Positions 5,544 to 38,142 of a DNA stretch of 64,000 bases are shown here, in pieces (within the stretch, counting starts at the first letter, position 1; every line of letters begins with the position of its first letter). A model generated the notes under the pieces. That model made no database searches, was not told where the DNA came from, and saw only the letters and a list, made by a program, of their open reading frames with translations. Both the position numbers and the translations under genes were made by a program. The stretch lies in sequence record PZ452578.1; one strand, given 5' to 3'. This DNA is from a phage.

Positions 5544-5861
5544 TTAAGACGCTTGAATTTTACGTGTGTAAGCATCAATCATATCCTCAATCTGCGATCT
5601 AGTAGTCTTCCAAAGAATACTGATGAGTTCATCGTTATATGGCTGTTTTAGAATATCCCGACTTTTCTTGATAGCATATTCGTATTGAGCAAAATTATTA
5701 TTTTCAGCTGCGATCTGAGCGTGCTTATAAAGACGATTCAGTTCGCGTTTGTTTTTAGACAATAACTTATTTGCTTTTCTTTCTGCTTCAAGACGGTTCT
5801 TTTCTTCAATAGAAGAAATAAGCTTTTCCACTTCATCATTAATTTCGGGTTTATCAGTCAT
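5544..5861 (-). CDS. Hypothetical protein (105 aa)
   Basis: ORF track; charged helical protein; position between 55 and a-gt. Confidence 0.45.
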   Translation of the reverse strand: MTDKPEINDEVEKLISSIEEKNRLEAERKANKLLSKNKRELNRLYKHAQIAAENNNFAQYEYAIKKSRDILKQPYNDELISILWKTTRSQIEDMIDAYTRKIQAS

Positions 5862-5862
5862 A

Positions 5863-6081
5863 TTATTTCTCTAATATAAAATAAAAATCATCATCTGTTA
5901 AATGATACCGATAGTTTAATTCTACACCATTAGATTTAAAAGCGGTATCATACGGATTTTCTGGATCAATATCAATGTCAAGAGCTAAAACTTCCCTGAG
6001 ATACATTTTAAGTAAATAGGGAATAGCTTCAACTTCAGGTATTTCTTCCAAGAATCCGGAGAGGTTAATCGTTAGCCTCAT
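5863..6081 (-). CDS. Hypothetical protein (72 aa)
   Basis: ORF track; overlaps gp55 stop. Confidence 0.4.
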
Positions 6082-6622
6082 ATAAAAAATCCAAACTAGG
6101 AGAATCGTCTACAACACTTTTCTTTTCAGCCCCCGGTGTTCTATAGGTTGATTCTTCGTAATGCGTCATTTTATCGTAGATGTCTTGAATAAAAGTTTCA
6201 TCTACTAACGCAACCATATCGTCGTCACGACTGTCATAGACATTGTGAACGAAGTAACTATATTTCTTTGCAACTTCCTTACGTTCTTTTTTAATACGTT
6301 GGACGAATGCATTAAAACAAGCTTGAGTTATATATGCATGTGGGTTTTTATATTTCGTTTCATCAAAATTGTGAAGTCCCTTAATAGAAGCTTCTATACC
6401 ATCTGCAATCATTTCTTGTTTCCAGGACTGGGTGTATCCTGAAAAGTTGAAACGTTTAGATAAGCCTTCTGCAATAAGCATAATGGCTAATCCGATAGTA
6501 TCATTCTGACGAACTACTTTATTTGGGTCTTTATTATTTGCTAATTCTGTTTTCCAATCAATAATAGCTTGTAAAAGCTCTTTATTGTTTACGTAATTAT
6601 ATTTAGGCTTAGTTTCTGACAT
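6065..6622 (-). CDS. 55: Late-transcription sigma factor gp55
   Basis: 185 aa from ATG at 6620-6622 ([24 protein letters not shown]...), matches T4 gp55 in length and sequence as I recall it; the track ORF starts 2 codons earlier at GTG. Confidence 0.9.
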
Positions 6623-12574: not shown

Positions 12575-12895
12575 TTATAGCGTAATCCATTCTCGTACTG
12601 TCTGAGTTACTACACGTTCTCGAGGTTCGACTAGTTCAACAGTCGGAACTGCATAATACCAGTCAGAATGATAAGAACCTGAACGGCATTCATTTACGGA
12701 AACATGTACATTATGTTTTGGACTAAAATAAACACACTGACGATATTGGCATTTACCATCTTGCACCCAGTCTTCTATTTCGATAGGTTTAAGATAGTCA
12801 GAAAAATCGAAATCATAGTTTTCCGAAAATGCATCATGGTCTTCGATGATTTCACTCAGAACTGCATCAACATCTAATTTATTTTCAGTATTCAT
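12575..12895 (-). CDS. Hypothetical acidic protein (106 aa)
   Basis: ORF track. Confidence 0.45.
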   Translation of the reverse strand: MNTENKLDVDAVLSEIIEDHDAFSENYDFDFSDYLKPIEIEDWVQDGKCQYRQCVYFSPKHNVHVSVNECRSGSYHSDWYYAVPTVELVEPRERVVTQTVREWITL

Positions 12896-13115: not shown

Positions 13116-13294
13116 TTAGAAATAGACTTTTCGCCATTAGAATAATAAACTTCAAGTTTAGCACGGTTATTTTTAATTTGAATAACCTTTGCTGTCATCA
13201 AAGTTCCATACCCATAATAAACTGCAACTTCATCACCTACATATACCGCGCTTCCGCGGTAGTCATGGATATAATCAGTTCCTTCAAGCATCAT
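13079..13294 (-). CDS. Hypothetical protein (71 aa)
   Basis: ORF track; stop overlaps nrdC start. Confidence 0.4.
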   Translation of the reverse strand: MMLEGTDYIHDYRGSAVYVGDEVAVYYGYGTLMTAKVIQIKNNRAKLEVYYSNGEKSISKWKYGDCMVKLG

Positions 13295-13554
13295 TTAAAG
13301 TATTCCCGCAATTGGTCAAATCCACCAATATGACTTCCATCAGGAGCAAATACCTGAGGCATTGTCAAGCCGATTTGAGTATCACGACCTAGTTTAGTCA
13401 GAAGCTCAGCGATTTTCTCATCATCAAAAACACCTTTTTCCGGCATAATGTTGATAAATTCAAACGGCTGTTTCTTCACGGTCAAAAGACGTTTTGCATT
13501 ATCACAATACACGCATTTATGAATGTTGCTATCATAACCATATACTTTAAACAT
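13291..13554 (-). CDS. nrdC: Glutaredoxin (T4 thioredoxin)
   Basis: 87 aa MFKVYGYDSNIHKCVYCDNAKRLL...; CVYC active site; matches T4 NrdC as I recall it. Confidence 0.85.
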   Translation of the reverse strand: MFKVYGYDSNIHKCVYCDNAKRLLTVKKQPFEFINIMPEKGVFDDEKIAELLTKLGRDTQIGLTMPQVFAPDGSHIGGFDQLREYFK

Positions 13555-13555
13555 A

Positions 13556-13813
13556 TTATTCCTTAATTCCTAGTACTTGTTTAAAAGTCTCGTCGTAATC
13601 AAGACTTTGGCCCGTTTGTTCTTTATATTTGTATATAATATCACTTACTTCTGATAGCATATTTTTATATGAACGAGTTAAAGCTGATTTAAGCACGCTG
13701 TATCTATCAGGAAATTTACCATGTTCATTATAATACGCTATTGCTAATTCACGGACTGCCTTTTCAGCAGTCTCCATATATTCTTTACGCTTGGTCATTT
13801 TCTTCTCGGTCAA
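13556..13813 (-). CDS. Hypothetical protein (85 aa)
   Basis: ORF track. Confidence 0.45.
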
Positions 13814-14099
13814 ATCGGTGTTTACAATGGCGACATTTATAACGAAGATTATTAGTCTGCCAATGGACTAATTGCACCTGTTCAGTTCCACACTCAGGGC
13901 AATTAGGAACGTTTTTAGAAGCCCTTTCGCGACGTTCAACCATGACCATTACAGAATCCCAATTAATAGGGCTGCTATAATCATCACAACCATAAATCTT
14001 TCCACGCATTTCCAGATCGTCTTCTTCACCAGCCATAATAATTTTAATTAGACTAGAATTACTTGAAGCTGCAATATCTTCTAATAAACGCTTTTTCAT
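13785..14099 (-). CDS. Zinc-ribbon protein (104 aa)
   Basis: CPECG...CRHCKH four-Cys ribbon. Confidence 0.45.
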
Positions 14100-15025
14100 T
14101 TCAGTACCTCAATAGCATTACGTAAACCATTTGCTTTTGCATTAAGAGCTTTTAACAATTTGGTGTGTTCTGCAATTTGGGCTTCAACTTCAATCAAACG
14201 AGCATTGAGATATTCGCGTTCTTCGCTCAAGTTATCAACCTTTTCTACTTTAGGCTCTTTTACAACTGTCTTATATGTATTAGGGTTCTTCAGTTTAATT
14301 AGAATGCGTGAACTGTATAACATTGAACCATTATCTTCGGTTTCGTCATACATTTCTACTACGTCCATAATTTCTAACATCACGCGAAGTTTATAAGACA
14401 ACGAACGAATAGTTTTGTTGTGCTTATTAATTTCTTTAGCTGTCATGGTGCCGAGATTACGTGAGTAATAATAAGGAACCTGGATATTAATTAATACTGA
14501 TGAACCACCTGGCTTGTGTGTTACTTCATCAGCAATAACCCAGTCCTTAACGTGAACTGTATTTGTACGGTCATCGCCCGCGGTAAATAGTTTGCGAGCA
14601 TGCTTAAAAAGCATATTCACTTGGTCATTGAATTGACAAGCAAATTTATCAGCAAATTTGGTTTCAGGAATGGTAGAAAACCAATTAGCCAAATGAGTCT
14701 TTTTAACATCATTAACAATAGTAAATTCAACCAAATCGGTTATAGATGTCTCAGATTTAATGAAGCTCGGCTTCATAAAGTTTTTAATGTTCTCATGAGC
14801 TACAGTAGAAGATAACATACGAGAACGTTTAAACCATTCAAGCAAATTGCCTAACGAATGAGAATAAGCGTTTTGAGTATCTTTACAGATATGATTTTCC
14901 TGGCCAACATATTGAAGGAAATCACGAAGAATATTATTGATTACTGCTCTGTGTCCTATCTGATAATTACGATGTTTAGTAATAAGACTATCAAAATAAT
15001 CAATATAATGTTTACGAGTTTTCAT
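14096..15025 (-). CDS. Hypothetical protein, member A of a 4-gene paralog array with C-terminal coiled coil
   Basis: 309 aa; N-term MKTRKHY; core shares FKHARKLF / MDVV motifs with the three ORFs upstream. Confidence 0.55.
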   Translation of the reverse strand: MKTRKHYIDYFDSLITKHRNYQIGHRAVINNILRDFLQYVGQENHICKDTQNAYSHSLGNLLEWFKRSRMLSSTVAHENIKNFMKPSFIKSETSITDLVEFTIVNDVKKTHLANWFSTIPETKFADKFACQFNDQVNMLFKHARKLFTAGDDRTNTVHVKDWVIADEVTHKPGGSSVLINIQVPYYYSRNLGTMTAKEINKHNKTIRSLSYKLRVMLEIMDVVEMYDETEDNGSMLYSSRILIKLKNPNTYKTVVKEPKVEKVDNLSEEREYLNARLIEVEAQIAEHTKLLKALNAKANGLRNAIEVLK

Positions 15026-15079
15026 GTTCTTCTCACTTGGTTAATGATTTATGCTCCGAGCCATCCTTGGCTTTAAATT

Positions 15080-16081
15080 TTACTTAATTAACTGTAAAGC
15101 TTGTTCTAGACGATCAAGACGATTAACAGATTCTTCCCAAATCCTTTTAGCCTGCTCATATTCTTTGTGCGCTTTATTAGAAATTTCTAGAACTTCTTTA
15201 TAAGCTTTTTCTAGTGCAATAACTTCTGGACGAATTTCTATCGGTTCAGGTGAATCGTCAAGACATTCCATTAGTTCCTCAAGGGTAGTTTCTTCTTTAG
15301 GAGTATTCACAATTTCATCACATTTTTGTTGATAAATTTCTTTATCAGTAGGTGAGTACGCGCACTTTACTTCACGAAGACTAATTACAATTTTATATCC
15401 TTCCCAGCCGCATATATTCTTAAAAGGATATGTATGAATATTTTCTACTGTTTCCATACAAAGTAATGCGGTCTCTAATTGACGAGTTATAGTGCTAGCA
15501 ATTGAGAAAAATTTATTAATATTCTTTTGGTTAGTTTCTGGTGTAAAAAATCTGTAATTAATAAAAATAGCTACTTTGTTTTTATCAAGCTCATATTCTT
15601 CTGCTATAATCATATCATCAGCTAAGGGATGAATTTGACGATAATCGCCATAACATAATTTAGAAGCTGATTTTAGAATTTGCTTCGTAAAACTCCTAAA
15701 TTCACTAACCCAACGACGAGTAAAAATATTCTCAGGGTCTTCTTTAGTATTAAGATGATAAGTATTAACATCACCGAACCAATTGTATCCTACTACATCT
15801 TTGGTTCGTTTAATTTCTTTCCCAAATTTACCAAGAATATCTTGATTAACTAAATATGAAAGAAGACGAGACCCTTTAAAGGTTTCCTTAATATCATCTT
15901 TATCTGCACGACTAGAAATTTTATGAACTTCATGAATAAATTTGCTGGAAGAAACAATACTTGCATCAGTATTATTGAGCCATTGATTGATAATGGAAAT
16001 AACGCTATTCTGACTAGACATAGGTTTAACTTTATCATCAATAACGCTATTGAATGATTTGATATATTCGTTACGAGTCAT
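15080..16081 (-). CDS. Hypothetical protein, paralog B (coiled-coil C-terminus)
   Basis: Start set at internal ATG 16079-16081 (MTRNEY...) preceded by GAGGAG SD and early promoter; 333 aa. Confidence 0.55.
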   Translation of the reverse strand: MTRNEYIKSFNSVIDDKVKPMSSQNSVISIINQWLNNTDASIVSSSKFIHEVHKISSRADKDDIKETFKGSRLLSYLVNQDILGKFGKEIKRTKDVVGYNWFGDVNTYHLNTKEDPENIFTRRWVSEFRSFTKQILKSASKLCYGDYRQIHPLADDMIIAEEYELDKNKVAIFINYRFFTPETNQKNINKFFSIASTITRQLETALLCMETVENIHTYPFKNICGWEGYKIVISLREVKCAYSPTDKEIYQQKCDEIVNTPKEETTLEELMECLDDSPEPIEIRPEVIALEKAYKEVLEISNKAHKEYEQAKRIWEESVNRLDRLEQALQLIK

Positions 16082-16109
16082 ATTAATCTCCTCAGTAGAA
16101 AGTAAGAAC

Positions 16110-16139
16110 ATTATACCACATCCTTGTGGCGAAGTAAAC
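16110..16139 (-). promoter_or_regulatory. T4-type early promoter
   Basis: minus strand GTTTAC-18nt-TATAAT with TGG extension; 25 nt upstream of ATG 16081. Confidence 0.55.
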
Positions 16140-17158
16140 TAGTTTAGTGCATTTAGTGCATTGTTCAGTTTAGAACGTTGCTTCGTGAGATTTTTGACTT
16201 TTTCTTGAGCTTTTTCTAGCATCTTTTCAGCTTCTAGCACTTCATTAGTTGCTTTGACGAGTTCATCATCTACTGCCTTGATAGACTTCTCAATCGCATC
16301 CGCGTGCCATTTTTCAACAGGTTTAAGACTCGGATTTTCAACAGGAAGAAAATTCACTTTATTGAATTTCCATGCATCTTTATTACCTGAACTATACATC
16401 CAAAATTTAGGATCGTTTGATGAGTAATTAGATAAATTTAAGTTATCTTGCACTTCTTGCTTTTTCTCTTGCGGGACTTCGTCCTTTCTCAAAAAATCGT
16501 ATTTAAATGAAACGATCATATCAAGTTCATATGTTGTTGTATGTTCCCAATTTCGCTCAAAACGAGGTAAAATCTTAGAATGAACTGCAGCAACAACATC
16601 CATATACTTAAATGCTTCTGTCAACTGCGATTTAAGGCATTCGCAAATTGAAAGAGAATTTTTTGTATTAGGTTTAAAGCTAATTCGTGCAGTTCTATTA
16701 TTTTCTTTTAATGGTCTTACTTCCATCTGAAGAGTATAACCATCAAATTTCAAGTTCTTTAAGTTAATGTCAGAACCTTTTAATCGACTAGCCGTCGACA
16801 AAATTTGCTTTAATTGTTTACGGAATAGAGCAATAAATCTCCATTCAATACGATAATGATTTGGATTGAAAAATCCAGATGATAAATCGACCTTACTCTG
16901 ACCAACACCTTGAACAAATAGAGGATTTTTATAATCAATAGTTTTACAGAAATCGGTGAGCTGCTCACGAGCAGTCATTTGTGTAATATACCCCGCTTTA
17001 CTAAAATGACGTAATAATTCACTGCTATTTAGATATTTAAAGTGAATAGCACGATTAACTTTATCAGGGTCTAAATTATTTTCACACAAAAATGTCATAA
17101 CATTACGAGTATCGCTGCCAGTACGAACCATATCTTCAATTTGAGAACGAGTTTTCAT
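16139..17158 (-). CDS. Hypothetical protein, paralog C (coiled-coil C-terminus)
   Basis: 339 aa; FRKQLKQILSTASRL core resembles RSFTKQILKSASKL of paralog B. Confidence 0.55.
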   Translation of the reverse strand: MKTRSQIEDMVRTGSDTRNVMTFLCENNLDPDKVNRAIHFKYLNSSELLRHFSKAGYITQMTAREQLTDFCKTIDYKNPLFVQGVGQSKVDLSSGFFNPNHYRIEWRFIALFRKQLKQILSTASRLKGSDINLKNLKFDGYTLQMEVRPLKENNRTARISFKPNTKNSLSICECLKSQLTEAFKYMDVVAAVHSKILPRFERNWEHTTTYELDMIVSFKYDFLRKDEVPQEKKQEVQDNLNLSNYSSNDPKFWMYSSGNKDAWKFNKVNFLPVENPSLKPVEKWHADAIEKSIKAVDDELVKATNEVLEAEKMLEKAQEKVKNLTKQRSKLNNALNALN

Positions 17159-17166
17159 GGTGTTCC

Positions 17167-18081
17167 TTAAGATTTAAGTAAATCAACAATTTTAATTAAC
17201 TTTTCACGCTCAGATTTAGCTTTACTACTCAGTCCAGATAGTCTGAAAATTTCATCATCATATTGTTGAATAGAAATATTCAGCTCTTCAATCTGTTTAT
17301 TAAAATAATCAATTTGTTCAGAATGTTTTTCGTTACTACGAAATGGTACAGGTTTTGTAGGCAATTTAGTTGAATTGGATTCATCCGGGCGATAAATTAA
17401 AATACAACTTGAACCAATCGGACATTTAGCACCAGATGAATATTCTAACGTTCCAGCTTCTTTTAAAACTTCAAAAGCTAAACAGAGATGATGCCCCATA
17501 TTGACATAATCTGTAGAGTGAGCTCTGACATAATAATCATCTCCACGAGTACTAAATTTAAAGCATTTAAGGTCTTCTGTATTATTAGTTTTAAAAATCA
17601 TTTGTTTATCTAGACCTTTAGCTAATCGAGCGCCTAATGCTAATAATCGTCGTTGATTTTCCCACAAATCCGCAATCATTTGGTCAAATGATAATTTTGG
17701 CATTAGTCGACCATAAAGGTCATATCCTTTATTATAATTACGAAGGATTTCACTCGCGTTAATACGAGACAACGCTCCAATTTTATTAAGGGCTTTCATA
17801 ATACGATTAGATAAACTCATTCCAGACCCGTTTGTTCGCCGTAAATGTTTTTCTAATCCAAATCCAATATCAACTTTAAATTTATCTAAAATTTCAGCAT
17901 GAACATCTCTGTCAATAACATTCAAATCCAAAGTTGGGTTAAATCTATGAAAAAATTTATCTGGCTCTCCACGACGAAGTACAGTCCATTCATTCATCAT
18001 TTTTTTATTAACTAAAGATTTAATTACTGCATTGACATTATTAATTGCTACTGACATATTTTCCTCACTCAATTTTACCAA
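17167..18081 (-). CDS. Hypothetical protein, paralog D (coiled-coil C-terminus)
   Basis: 304 aa; same architecture, more divergent. Confidence 0.5.
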   Translation of the reverse strand: MVKLSEENMSVAINNVNAVIKSLVNKKMMNEWTVLRRGEPDKFFHRFNPTLDLNVIDRDVHAEILDKFKVDIGFGLEKHLRRTNGSGMSLSNRIMKALNKIGALSRINASEILRNYNKGYDLYGRLMPKLSFDQMIADLWENQRRLLALGARLAKGLDKQMIFKTNNTEDLKCFKFSTRGDDYYVRAHSTDYVNMGHHLCLAFEVLKEAGTLEYSSGAKCPIGSSCILIYRPDESNSTKLPTKPVPFRSNEKHSEQIDYFNKQIEELNISIQQYDDEIFRLSGLSSKAKSEREKLIKIVDLLKS

Positions 18082-19494: not shown

Positions 19495-20214
19495 TTACGA
19501 TTCTTCTAAATGTCTTTTCTGAAAAGTTGATACCATACTACGATAAGGTTCATTTGGATACCCGTGTTTTATAGCTTCCTTTGTAAATTTTCTCCATCCG
19601 TATTTAGTTTCTTTCCAAAGCTCGAATAATTCATCTTCATACTGCCATATAGTTAAATGAGAACGCTTTGCAGCTTTAATTCCATTAATGTGCTTTTCTT
19701 TTACTGTAGGATTGCTTAGTGTCTTTTTAATAATATTACTAACTTTTCTAACAAAAGCTGGGTCCTTATATCGTTGTGAAGTTTTTATTGAAGTGTTTAA
19801 TTTAGCTTCCGGCGTGGATGTGACCTCTTTCATCTTTTTCTTCATATGCTCTATATGATTAGGATTTTTCCATAAATTTATAGAATGCTTTTTACATTTT
19901 ATCCTAGTTTCATCTGCAACCTTTCCTCCTTCACCCCCATATGACAGGTTAACGCAGTTTTTTCCATATTTCAATTTACCTGCCATGATATATAATATTT
20001 CGGCTTGTACCATTTTATCATAATTATCAAAAACTTCTAAAACCGTTTTTGATAATATATGGTCATTTGACACTTTTACACGTTCTATATAATTTCCACT
20101 ACCAACATACGAATCATTGATGTTATTAGTTATATGTCGACCATAATAGTATTTCTTAATACCTGTCTTTAAATTTAATATTTCAGTTTTATAGATAGTA
20201 AAATATTTTTTCAT
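19495..20214 (-). CDS. GIY-YIG family endonuclease-like protein (Seg-like, putative freestanding homing endonuclease)
   Basis: 239 aa; FTIYKTEILNLKTGIKKYYYGRH; basic C-terminal region; start overlaps upstream stop (ATGA). Confidence 0.55.
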   Translation of the reverse strand: MKKYFTIYKTEILNLKTGIKKYYYGRHITNNINDSYVGSGNYIERVKVSNDHILSKTVLEVFDNYDKMVQAEILYIMAGKLKYGKNCVNLSYGGEGGKVADETRIKCKKHSINLWKNPNHIEHMKKKMKEVTSTPEAKLNTSIKTSQRYKDPAFVRKVSNIIKKTLSNPTVKEKHINGIKAAKRSHLTIWQYEDELFELWKETKYGWRKFTKEAIKHGYPNEPYRSMVSTFQKRHLEES

Positions 20215-37314: not shown

Positions 37315-37390
37315 TGGTCGAGGCAGTAGGAATCGAACCTACGACCTAGGACTTAGAAGGTCCTTGCTCTTCCTTCTGAGCTATGCCTCG
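37315..37390 (-). tRNA. tRNA-Arg (anticodon UCU)
   Basis: Manual fold: acceptor CGAGGCA/TGCCTCG, D-stem GCTC/GAGC, anticodon loop CTTCTAA, T-loop TTCGATT, CCA encoded. Confidence 0.8.
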
Positions 37391-37394
37391 GATT

Positions 37395-37469
37395 TGGCGG
37401 ACGTGATAGGATTCGAACCTATAACCAATCGCTTAACAGGCGATCGCTCTGCCATTGAGCTACACATCC
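37395..37469 (-). tRNA. tRNA-Asn (anticodon GUU)
   Basis: Manual fold: acceptor GGATGTG/CACGTCC, D-stem GCTC/GAGC, anticodon loop CTGTTAA, T-loop TTCGAAT, CCA encoded. Confidence 0.75.
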
Positions 37470-37473
37470 AAAT

Positions 37474-37560
37474 TGGTGGGGAGTGATGGAGTCGAACCAC
37501 CCGAGTCGCAATGACAATGGATTTACAGTCCACACCGCTACCTCTACGGGATAACTCCCC
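37474..37560 (-). tRNA. tRNA-like, Tyr-type (anticodon GUA, long variable arm), non-canonical D region
   Basis: Acceptor GGGGAGT/ACTCCCC, anticodon loop CTGTAAA, T-loop TTCGACT, CCA encoded; 4-nt linker before 3-bp D stem. Confidence 0.45.
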
Positions 37561-37569
37561 TAATTAATT

Positions 37570-37644
37570 TGGTGGCCCTGGGTGGAATTGAACCACCATC
37601 TGGCGATTATGAGTCGCTTGCTTGAACCTTCCAGCTACAGGGCC
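37570..37644 (-). tRNA. tRNA-Ile/Met type (anticodon CAU)
   Basis: Acceptor GGCCCTG/CAGGGCC, anticodon loop CTCATAA, T-loop TTCAATT, CCA encoded. Confidence 0.75.
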
Positions 37645-37645
37645 T

Positions 37646-37721
37646 TGGTGCTGATTGACGGAATCGAACCGCCGACCTTCTCATTACAAGTGAGTTGCTC
37701 TACCTACTGAGCTAAATCAGC
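37646..37721 (-). tRNA. tRNA-Thr (anticodon UGU)
   Basis: Acceptor GCTGATT/AATCAGC, D-stem GCTC/GAGC, anticodon loop CTTGTAA, CCA encoded. Confidence 0.8.
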
Positions 37722-37726
37722 AAAAC

Positions 37727-37816
37727 TGGCGGAGGCGATAGGATTTGAACCTATGAGTCGCCGGAGCGACTGCCGGTTTTCAAGACCGGTGCATTAAACC
37801 ACTCTGCCACGCCTCC
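37727..37816 (-). tRNA. tRNA-Ser (anticodon UGA), long variable arm
   Basis: Acceptor GGAGGCG/CGCCTCC, anticodon loop CTTGAAA, T-loop TTCAAAT, CCA encoded. Confidence 0.8.
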
Positions 37817-37818
37817 AG

Positions 37819-37892
37819 TCTCCATACAAGGATTTGAACCTTGGACCTCCTGATCCCAAATCAGGCGCTCTACCAAACTGAGCTACACGGAG
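37819..37892 (-). tRNA. tRNA-Pro (anticodon UGG)
   Basis: Acceptor CTCCGTG/TATGGAG, anticodon loop TTTGGGA, T-loop TTCAAAT; CCA not encoded. Confidence 0.8.
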
Positions 37893-37902
37893 TAAATTAA
37901 AT

Positions 37903-37976
<74 letters not shown>

Positions 37977-37981
37977 AAATT

Positions 37982-38068
37982 TGGTGCGAGAAGTGGGACT
38001 CGAACCCACAAGGAAATCATTCCGCAGCATTTTAAGTGCTGTGCCTTTACCAATTTGACCATTCTCGC
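37982..38068 (-). tRNA. tRNA-Leu (anticodon UAA), long variable arm
   Basis: Acceptor GCGAGAA/TTCTCGC, anticodon loop CTTAAAA, T-loop TTCGAGT, CCA encoded. Confidence 0.8.
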
Positions 38069-38069
38069 G

Positions 38070-38142
38070 CTGGGAATAAAGGACTCGAACCTTTGCATCC
38101 TGGAATCAAAATCCAGTGCCTTACCAACTTGGCTAATTCCCA
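38070..38142 (-). tRNA. tRNA-Gln (anticodon UUG)
   Basis: Acceptor TGGGAAT/ATTCCCA, anticodon loop TTTTGAT, T-loop TTCGAGT; 1 nt from tRNA-Leu. Confidence 0.8.

Follow-up and report, generated by a model that had tools for sequence, protein, structure and literature searches.

Tandem genes nrdC.3 to nrdC.6 of a T4-like phage: probable ancient duplicates and candidate inhibitors of bacterial immunity

Why would a T4-like phage carry, side by side in its early region, four large genes of similar size, and do they share one ancestor and one kind of task? The question is raised by nrdC.3, nrdC.4, nrdC.5, and nrdC.6, which follow one another in a 64,000-nucleotide stretch of phage DNA (sequence record PZ452578.1, hereafter the window) that we identified as a Tequatrovirus (T4-like) genome. 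The 3,986-bp DNA of the array matches 655 phage records at 80 to 97% DNA identity, almost all of them Tequatrovirus coliphages of Escherichia, Shigella, and Yersinia, and the genes were named after their annotated counterparts in phages ime09 and T4. The genes have long been annotated as hypothetical in T4, where one of them has a published anti-defense phenotype, and three of the four large early genes have no known role even in the best-studied phage. The answer that we favor, and hold to be rather probable, is that the array consists of ancient tandem duplicates of one early, nonessential accessory gene whose protein products are inhibitors of host immunity.

Common ancestry of the four genes is the first step of this answer. 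Pairwise BLASTP was significant for two pairs only, nrdC.3-nrdC.4 (E = 1.5e-7 over 226 residues) and nrdC.4-nrdC.5 (E = 6.5e-4), and, like the hidden Markov models (HMMs) of single families, proved too weak to tie nrdC.5 and nrdC.6 to the others; profile-profile comparison with permutation controls was used instead. Family alignments were assembled from database homologues and 14 related loci and compared by hhalign. The nrdC.3 and nrdC.4 families matched with a probability of 97.5% (E = 6e-12), and nrdC.3/nrdC.4 matched nrdC.5 with a probability of 92.4% (E = 5.2e-7), the score of 56.1 standing against 26.7 ± 4.6 in 60 block-shuffled controls (z = 6.4). The combined nrdC.3/4/5 profile matched nrdC.6 with a probability of 83.3% (E = 8.5e-6, score 46.8), collinearly across 271 columns, almost the full length. 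This last link was checked against 200 permutation controls, in which column shuffles scored 14.2 ± 2.5 and block shuffles 18.7 ± 4.1 with a maximum of 34.5, so that the match lies ~6.9 standard deviations above the block shuffles. Moreover, protein P0233 bridges the families, its N terminus being nrdC.3/nrdC.4-like and its C terminus nrdC.5-like. Databases divide the four among several families: nrdC.3 and nrdC.4 share phrog_1435 in PHROGs, with nrdC.5 in phrog_2351 and nrdC.6 in phrog_2257, and Pfam holds three separate families. One of these, DUF7235 (PF23882), covers nrdC.5 with 418 bits (gathering threshold 30) over model positions 1 to 307 of 307 and gave no match to nrdC.3, nrdC.4, or nrdC.6; the others, PF26897 and PF26899, are precomputed labels on all nrdC.4 homologues and on nrdC.6 homologues, respectively. 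Within the DNA of the array, only short chance repeats were found, plus a ATGAAAACTCGT start common to nrdC.3 and nrdC.5; since no DNA-level repeat survives between the copies, the duplications are too old to be visible in the DNA. Altogether, it is near-certain that nrdC.3, nrdC.4, and nrdC.5 are paralogs, among which nrdC.3 appears to be the nearest relative of nrdC.4, and very likely that nrdC.6 belongs with them. The tandem paralogy proposed in an earlier note on this DNA, written from the letters alone, is thereby upheld for the whole array, with significant similarity joining all families at the profile level and nrdC.6 as the weakest link.

Could nrdC.6 nevertheless have a separate origin, as a gene of similar size whose helical N terminus and coiled-coil C terminus arose by convergence? 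BLASTP, family HMMs, and hhalign against nrdC.3/nrdC.4 alone or against nrdC.5 alone were all nonsignificant for nrdC.6, and an HMM profile of nrdC.3+4+5 run against 1.84 billion representative proteins returned 17 matches, all T-even-type proteins or fragments, among which there was no nrdC.6 family, no bacterial relative, and no functional clue apart from how narrowly the family is distributed. However, the combined profile match is collinear and well over its controls, and predicted structures point the same way. With the AlphaFold2 model of nrdC.4 (predicted local distance difference test score [pLDDT] 85, predicted template modeling score [pTM] 0.69), Foldseek found 19 matches in BFVD at E <= 1e-3, all of them T4-like phage proteins of 280 to 374 amino acids (aa) or fragments of such, and these include NrdC.6 of phage JS10 (E = 1.5e-4, probability 1.0, template modeling scores 0.40/0.47). 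The fold comparison, which covers the nrdC.4 and nrdC.6 models (the latter with pLDDT 78) and was made by element order, gave an identical succession in both: an N-terminal helix bundle is followed by short strands and a helix triplet of 10-12/11/4 residues; next come two hairpins separated by a long helix, then a disordered linker, and finally long C-terminal helices. In addition, nrdC.6 stays adjacent to other members across genera. We therefore regard an independent origin of nrdC.6 as highly improbable.

The proteins share a layout that begins with an N-terminal helical domain and continues with a central alpha/beta core, which contains a conserved helix pair (…A-x-[KR]-L…G-D) and an "M-D/E-V/T-V" helix, then a poorly ordered linker and an amphipathic heptad helix of 45 to 50 residues. 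The motif at the very end of that helix (…[KR]L..A[LI]..L[KN]) is similar in all four, and the rest of the proteins is 12 to 25% identical between paralogs. The heptad-rich C termini described in the earlier note were confirmed, with significant periodicity in every protein over the last 49 residues (hydrophobic occupancy of heptad positions a and d of 0.71 to 0.93 versus 0.45 to 0.58 in shuffled sequences, P <= 0.012), and its central "basic helices" fall at equivalent positions of the alignment in each of the four proteins. Two shorter motifs held in part. The MDVV segment is found in nrdC.3 and nrdC.5, reads METV in nrdC.4, and is absent from nrdC.6; the MKTR/MTRNEY start takes the form M(K)TR in nrdC.3, nrdC.4, and nrdC.5, where it also begins the orthologs of other genera with T2 and R3 invariant, and does not extend to nrdC.6. 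Across the nrdC.3/4/5 families, six columns only are invariant (T2, R3, F, A, M, and V), none of them typically catalytic. No enzyme domain was found in the four proteins in Pfam, where DUF7235 was the only hit, or in NCBIfam; a PDB sequence search gave chance helical matches and no relatives, and the other PHROG cross-matches were weak and led only to families with no assigned function. Judged by these sequence searches, the family is probably not enzymatic.

Table 1. Coordinates of the array genes, their C-terminal helices, the putative promoter, and two neighboring genes in the window (a/d, fraction of hydrophobic residues at heptad positions a and d)
Feature	Position	Strand	Details
nrdC.3 (open reading frame A)	14096-15025	minus	309 aa; named via ime09; phrog_1435, E = 2e-115
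nrdC.3 C-terminal heptad helix, last 49 aa	14099-14245	minus	a/d 0.86 vs 0.58 shuffled, P = 0.001
nrdC.4 (open reading frame B)	15080-16081	minus	333 aa; phrog_1435, E = 6e-165
nrdC.4 C-terminal heptad helix	15083-15229	minus	a/d 0.71 vs 0.52 shuffled, P = 0.012; AlphaFold2 helix at residues 285-332
Putative T4 early-type (sigma-70) promoter, for nrdC.4 and nrdC.3	16138-16110	minus	GTTTACTT-N17-TGgTATAAT (extended -10)
nrdC.5 (open reading frame C)	16139-17158	minus	339 aa; Pfam DUF7235, E = 3.2e-125; ortholog of T4 anti-Dsr1 protein
nrdC.5 C-terminal heptad helix	16142-16288	minus	a/d 0.93 vs 0.54 shuffled, P < 0.0005
nrdC.6 (open reading frame D)	17167-18057	minus	296 aa; phrog_2257, E = 1.6e-150; most divergent paralog (probable)
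nrdC.6 C-terminal helices (helix, GLS turn, helix)	17170-17316	minus	a/d 0.71 vs 0.45 shuffled, P = 0.001; AlphaFold2 helices at residues 243-272 and 278-295
gene 49.2	12575-12895	minus	96% identical to T4 gp49.2
nrdC.1	13556-13798	minus	99% identical to T4 NrdC.1

What such proteins might do is indicated by one of them. Our search of the literature for a mechanism of NrdC.5 or a function of nrdC.3, nrdC.4, or nrdC.6 found a sole functional source (Srikant, Guegler & Laub, eLife 2022, PMC9391042). In that article, a T4 clone with compensatory deletions had lost the ability to plate on ECOR17 except where dsr1 was deleted, MG1655 was protected against this clone by cloned Dsr1, and nrdC.5 expressed alone from a plasmid restored plating of the T4 deletion mutant on Dsr1-bearing E. 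coli. Dsr1 is there described as a Sir2-type, NAD-destroying (NADase) defense that is neutralized by T4 NrdC.5, and nrdC.5 is called an early gene; the article describes neither a paralogy nor a mechanism for nrdC.5. The window nrdC.5 is the ortholog of this protein (PF23882), alike in position and length and 92% identical, with the difference that the experiments concern the T4 protein, whereas the window copy is known from its sequence. The anti-defense role that the earlier note had offered as a guess agrees, for this one member, with the published experiments (PMC9391042). Being diverged, distant paralogs of nrdC.5, the genes nrdC.3, nrdC.4, and nrdC.6 become candidate inhibitors of other defense systems; since they are only 12 to 25% identical to NrdC.5, they need not target Dsr1.

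We propose a model in which the nrdC.3 to nrdC.6 proteins would act as nonenzymatic, stoichiometric inhibitors produced early in infection. They would oligomerize through the C-terminal coiled coil, and their variable central and N-terminal surfaces would bind a host immune protein before it fires, e.g., the Dsr1 sensor or effector; duplication followed by divergence would then have aimed the paralogs at different targets or target variants. A close published parallel is DSAD1, an inhibitor of the Sir2 NADase DSR2: this is also a phage protein with no enzymatic domain that neutralizes a defense-associated sirtuin, and stoichiometric binding that blocks activation could be a further likeness. 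It differs in coming from Bacillus phages and in having DSR2 rather than Dsr1 as its target, and we found no sequence or fold relationship between the two. The tetratricopeptide repeat (TPR) sensor of Dsr1 has been reported in a preprint to recognize phage major capsid proteins (PMC12803255). Since this sensor reads capsid proteins and DSAD1 blocks DSR2, occlusion of the Dsr1 sensor by NrdC.5 would be, by analogy, a reasonable model.

Early expression is consistent with the sequence upstream of nrdC.4. The claim that at least one of the genes has its own early promoter was borne out for nrdC.4 by a consensus scan (10/12 positions plus the TG extension, directly upstream of the gene), by the sequence itself, and by phage SA21RB, whose record marks the corresponding site as a T4 early promoter; two further annotations in that record are an early promoter ahead of nrdC.8 and a middle one ahead of nrdC.7. 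Promoter calls both here and in SA21RB are consensus matches, not measurements. The four tandem open reading frames of 304 to 343 aa listed in the earlier note do lie, on the minus strand, at the coordinates that it gave, the starts of nrdC.4 and nrdC.6 having been drawn too long. The nrdC.4 start is ATG 16081 (MTRNEY..., Shine-Dalgarno GAGGAG), which yields the 333-aa form used in T4 RefSeq and most homologues; the open frame runs on to ATG 16111, which overlaps the promoter -10 box and was set aside because it lies inside that element. For nrdC.6 the start is ATG 18057 (Shine-Dalgarno GAGGAA), and the version from TTG 18081, its longest open reading frame, is unlikely to be the one in use. 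The 54-nt spacer between nrdC.4 and nrdC.3 (15026-15079) holds a short hairpin, AGCCA-AGGA-TGGCT, just past the nrdC.4 stop; on the coding strand it lacks a following T-run and is thus no typical terminator, and a role in RNA processing or stability is conceivable.

A different view of the coiled coils would make the paralogs subunits of one hetero-oligomeric complex, held together by their similar C-terminal helices and serving a single shared function. The heptad helix and its terminal motif are indeed kept in all four proteins despite the low identity elsewhere, the order nrdC.6-nrdC.5 is conserved in every multicopy array examined, and the promoter predictions have the genes cotranscribed as neighbors. 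However, a plasmid with nrdC.5 alone rescues the mutant (PMC9391042), and members are lost or broken in nature, as with the helix of T4 nrdC.6 and with nrdC.4 in locus L009, T2, and G8. Mosigvirus SF has no nrdC.4, JS98-type phages have no nrdC.3, and some genera hold a single copy. On this balance an obligate complex seems unlikely to us.

About equally unlikely is that the central domain mimics, or descends from, a phage tail-terminator or tail-completion protein and serves as an early decoy that occupies, without activating them, immune sensors for structural proteins of the virion. Foldseek against BFVD also returned 130- to 155-aa phage proteins at probabilities of 0.8 to 0.99, one of them named a tail completion protein, and precedents exist: DSR2 is a sensor of the tail tube that the phage protein DSAD1 blocks, and the Dsr1 sensor is the one reported to read capsid proteins (preprint, PMC12803255). 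The scores are modest, however, and unrelated two-layer alpha/beta proteins (ribosomal S6, RRF, and nitroreductases) do nearly as well. No confirmation came from the nrdC.6 model, whose helical hairpin dominated the search; Pfam, PHROGs, and PDB sequences gave no sequence match to tail-terminator families. Compared with lambda gpU-like tail-terminator/completion proteins, to which they have weak structural scores and no sequence similarity, the nrdC proteins are early, nonstructural, and twice the size, with extra N-terminal and coiled-coil parts. Moreover, what is reported to trigger Dsr1 is a capsid protein and not a tail terminator (PMC12803255), no paper in our literature search named tail terminators as a trigger of defense, and the genes belong to the early nrdC-mobD region, where they occupy the early strand behind an early-type promoter, and not to the late tail module. 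A broader and slightly less likely version would have the array encode a diversified set of structural-protein mimics in which every member blocks its own bacterial pattern-recognition sensor of late virion proteins, with Dsr1 as the first known target. If true, this would represent a family-level anti-immunity strategy based on mimicry of the phage's own molecular patterns.

The genomic position suggests yet another possibility, namely, that these are host-takeover or regulatory factors outside immunity, e.g., modulators of nucleotide or NAD metabolism, with only an indirect effect on Dsr1. The genes sit between the nucleotide-metabolism genes nrdC and nrdD, many GenBank records use the label "thioredoxin," and the Dsr1 rescue assay (PMC9391042) is no proof of direct inhibition. 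Against this, the proteins have no thioredoxin, glutaredoxin, or other enzyme domain, lack CxxC, and keep very few invariant residues; they diverge fast, unlike their metabolic neighbors, and the genes can be spared in the laboratory host and are needed only on a Dsr1-bearing one (PMC9391042). We consider a role outside immunity quite improbable. As for the label itself, homologues of nrdC.3 to nrdC.6 are called "thioredoxin" in GenBank at times for 5 to 8 genes in a row, and gene 49.2 is labeled "ribonucleotide reductase" in the T4 and ime09 records; such labels seem to have been carried over from gene names. A thioredoxin or glutaredoxin identity was rejected, with no Pfam or NCBIfam match and no CxxC in any of the four sequences; the true glutaredoxin-like NrdC is a separate 87-aa gene at 13291-13554.

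The evolution of the array is that of a dispensable, fast-evolving accessory family. Between genera, identity is 22 to 51% for nrdC.3 to nrdC.6 versus 67 to 87% for nrdC, nrdC.8, and nrdC.10, with nrdC.5 diverging fastest (27 to 32%). Within Tequatrovirus, gene-wide ratios of nonsynonymous to synonymous substitution rates (dN/dS) are 0.07 to 0.27 for nrdC.3 to nrdC.6 versus 0 to 0.12 for nrdC, nrdC.8, and nrdC.10. The diversifying selection suggested by the earlier note did not emerge from these values, which exceed those of the neighbors but stay far below 1, so that positive selection is not shown; its description of a plastic region, on the contrary, fits what was found. The window NrdC.4 is 90% identical to T4 NrdC.4 (333 aa), and the window NrdC.3 just 61% identical to T4 NrdC.3, so that the window nrdC.3 is the alternative allele. 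Two such alleles, 61 to 62% identical, occur between flanking genes that are 92 to 100% identical, T4 having the other one; their first ~70 and last ~50 residues are ~90% conserved and their centers 25 to 65% identical. In locus L009 (7001-8033) a frameshift splits nrdC.4 into open reading frames of 193 and 158 aa, and for T2 (A0A2Z5WKJ2) and G8 (A0A482N302) BFVD holds only fragments of ~155 aa, which argues that nrdC.4 is dispensable in some lineages. The T4 nrdC.6 (locus L019, NC_000866, 8067-8894) is annotated at 275 aa; over 259 residues it shares 97% identity with the window protein, after which the frame changes and the protein ends in …NNMMMKFSDYLD. Reference T4 therefore lacks the C-terminal coiled-coil helices kept elsewhere. 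The array also recombines in nature. In P0056, the middle of nrdC.5 is joined to the second half of nrdC.3 at a short "KVN/QVN-M" junction common to both, with deletion of nrdC.4; P0236 carries an unrelated 120-aa N terminus on the exact nrdC.5 C-terminal helix, and P0234 consists of that helix nearly alone. A further copy of an nrdC.3 allele (P0232) differs almost exclusively by changes of the C-to-T type (S>L/F, T>I, P>L, A>V, H>Y, and R>C) and looks like a database artifact, an assembly of bisulfite-converted or deaminated reads.

Gene content differs between genera as well, with one to four copies across T4-like phages. The order is nrdC.6-nrdC.5-nrdC.4-nrdC.3 in Tequatrovirus; nrdC.6, a 71-aa membrane protein gene, nrdC.5, and nrdC.4, without nrdC.3, in JS98-/VR-type phages; and nrdC.6-nrdC.5-nrdC.3, without nrdC.4, in Mosigvirus SF. 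Klebsiella phage Roth34 and Acinetobacter phage AB-Navy71 have one member, located upstream of nrdC, so that the hosts of phages with this family include Escherichia, Klebsiella, and Acinetobacter. Dispensability, raised dN/dS, low between-genus identity, broken and fused variants, and varying copy number together give the family an arms-race-like character.

Several points weigh against the inhibitor model that we favor. Experimental support is limited to nrdC.5; direct binding of Dsr1 by NrdC.5 is something that we infer by analogy, and nrdC.3, nrdC.4, and nrdC.6 are, by their sequences, candidates only. Other paralogs were perhaps still present in the rescued T4 mutant, and a requirement for hetero-oligomers may thus be hidden. 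The only sources for the predicted C-terminal oligomerization are the heptad periodicity and AlphaFold2 models of single chains, nrdC.6 is tied to the family less strongly, in statistical terms, than the other members, and dN/dS well below 1 gives no direct sign of positive selection.

Relative to the literature searched, two elements appear new: that nrdC.3 to nrdC.6 would form one superfamily across T4-like phages, and that its three uncharacterized members would be candidate counter-defense proteins. If they are distant paralogs of a Dsr1 antagonist, nrdC.3, nrdC.4, and nrdC.6 represent specific and testable anti-defense candidates. If the model is true, a counter-defense repertoire can grow by duplication and divergence of one inhibitor scaffold, beyond the gathering of unrelated small inhibitors. 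Target specificities worked out in T4 could shed light on the host range of therapeutic phages or help to engineer it, and the domain layout shows which parts to mutate in order to address how Dsr1 is inhibited.

In the direction of transcription, the array lies downstream of the membrane protein gene nrdC.7 and upstream of nrdC.2, nrdC.1, and nrdC. T6 Gp49.2 has been reported as an OLD inhibitor (PMC13096335) and T4 NrdC.1 as a Septu inhibitor (bioRxiv 10.1101/2025.11.20.689424), and pin, encoding a Lon inhibitor, lies beside 49.2 and nrdC.1 (Table 1). With pin, 49.2 (anti-OLD), and nrdC.1 (anti-Septu) as neighbors, the array lies in an anti-defense island. It resembles 49.2, nrdC.1, and the dmd-tifA-adfA "anti-TA island" in that these genes are early, dispensable, fast evolving, and clustered, each being needed only on hosts with a particular defense; it differs in that those genes are small and mutually unrelated, whereas here four genes of ~300 to 340 aa would come from one ancestor.

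The surroundings vary too. Gene nrdC.2 (13785-14099) is 64 to 86% identical among close relatives, with lengths of 98 to 129 aa and differing C-terminal ends, next to nrdC.1 and nrdC, which are 97 to 100% conserved in loci L003 to L009. In JS98-/VR-type phages (loci L006 to L015, ~5850-6100), the small membrane protein between nrdC.6 and nrdC.5 is predicted at 67 to 71 aa, begins MEI[VL]GFI…, and overlaps the annotated nrdC.5 start; Tequatrovirus has instead the 133-aa membrane protein nrdC.7 upstream of nrdC.6. Between nrdC.9 and nrdC.10, a 239-aa open reading frame (19495-20214, minus strand; MKKYFTIYKTEI…YYYGRH) resembles a GIY-YIG homing endonuclease by its N-terminal motif, with no match in NCBIfam. 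It is present in the window and in locus L005, and the same position is empty in L003, L004, and L009, a distribution that suggests a mobile insertion.

Farther along the window, 10 tRNA genes (Arg, Asn, Tyr, Met/CAT, Thr, Ser, Pro, Gly, Leu, and Gln) form a cluster at 37315-38142 on the minus strand, coinciding with a G+C peak at 36 to 38 kb. T4 has 8 tRNA genes, so that Asn and Tyr would be extra in the window. Since Septu has been reported to cleave tRNA-Tyr (PMC13096335), the tRNA-Tyr of the window is of interest.

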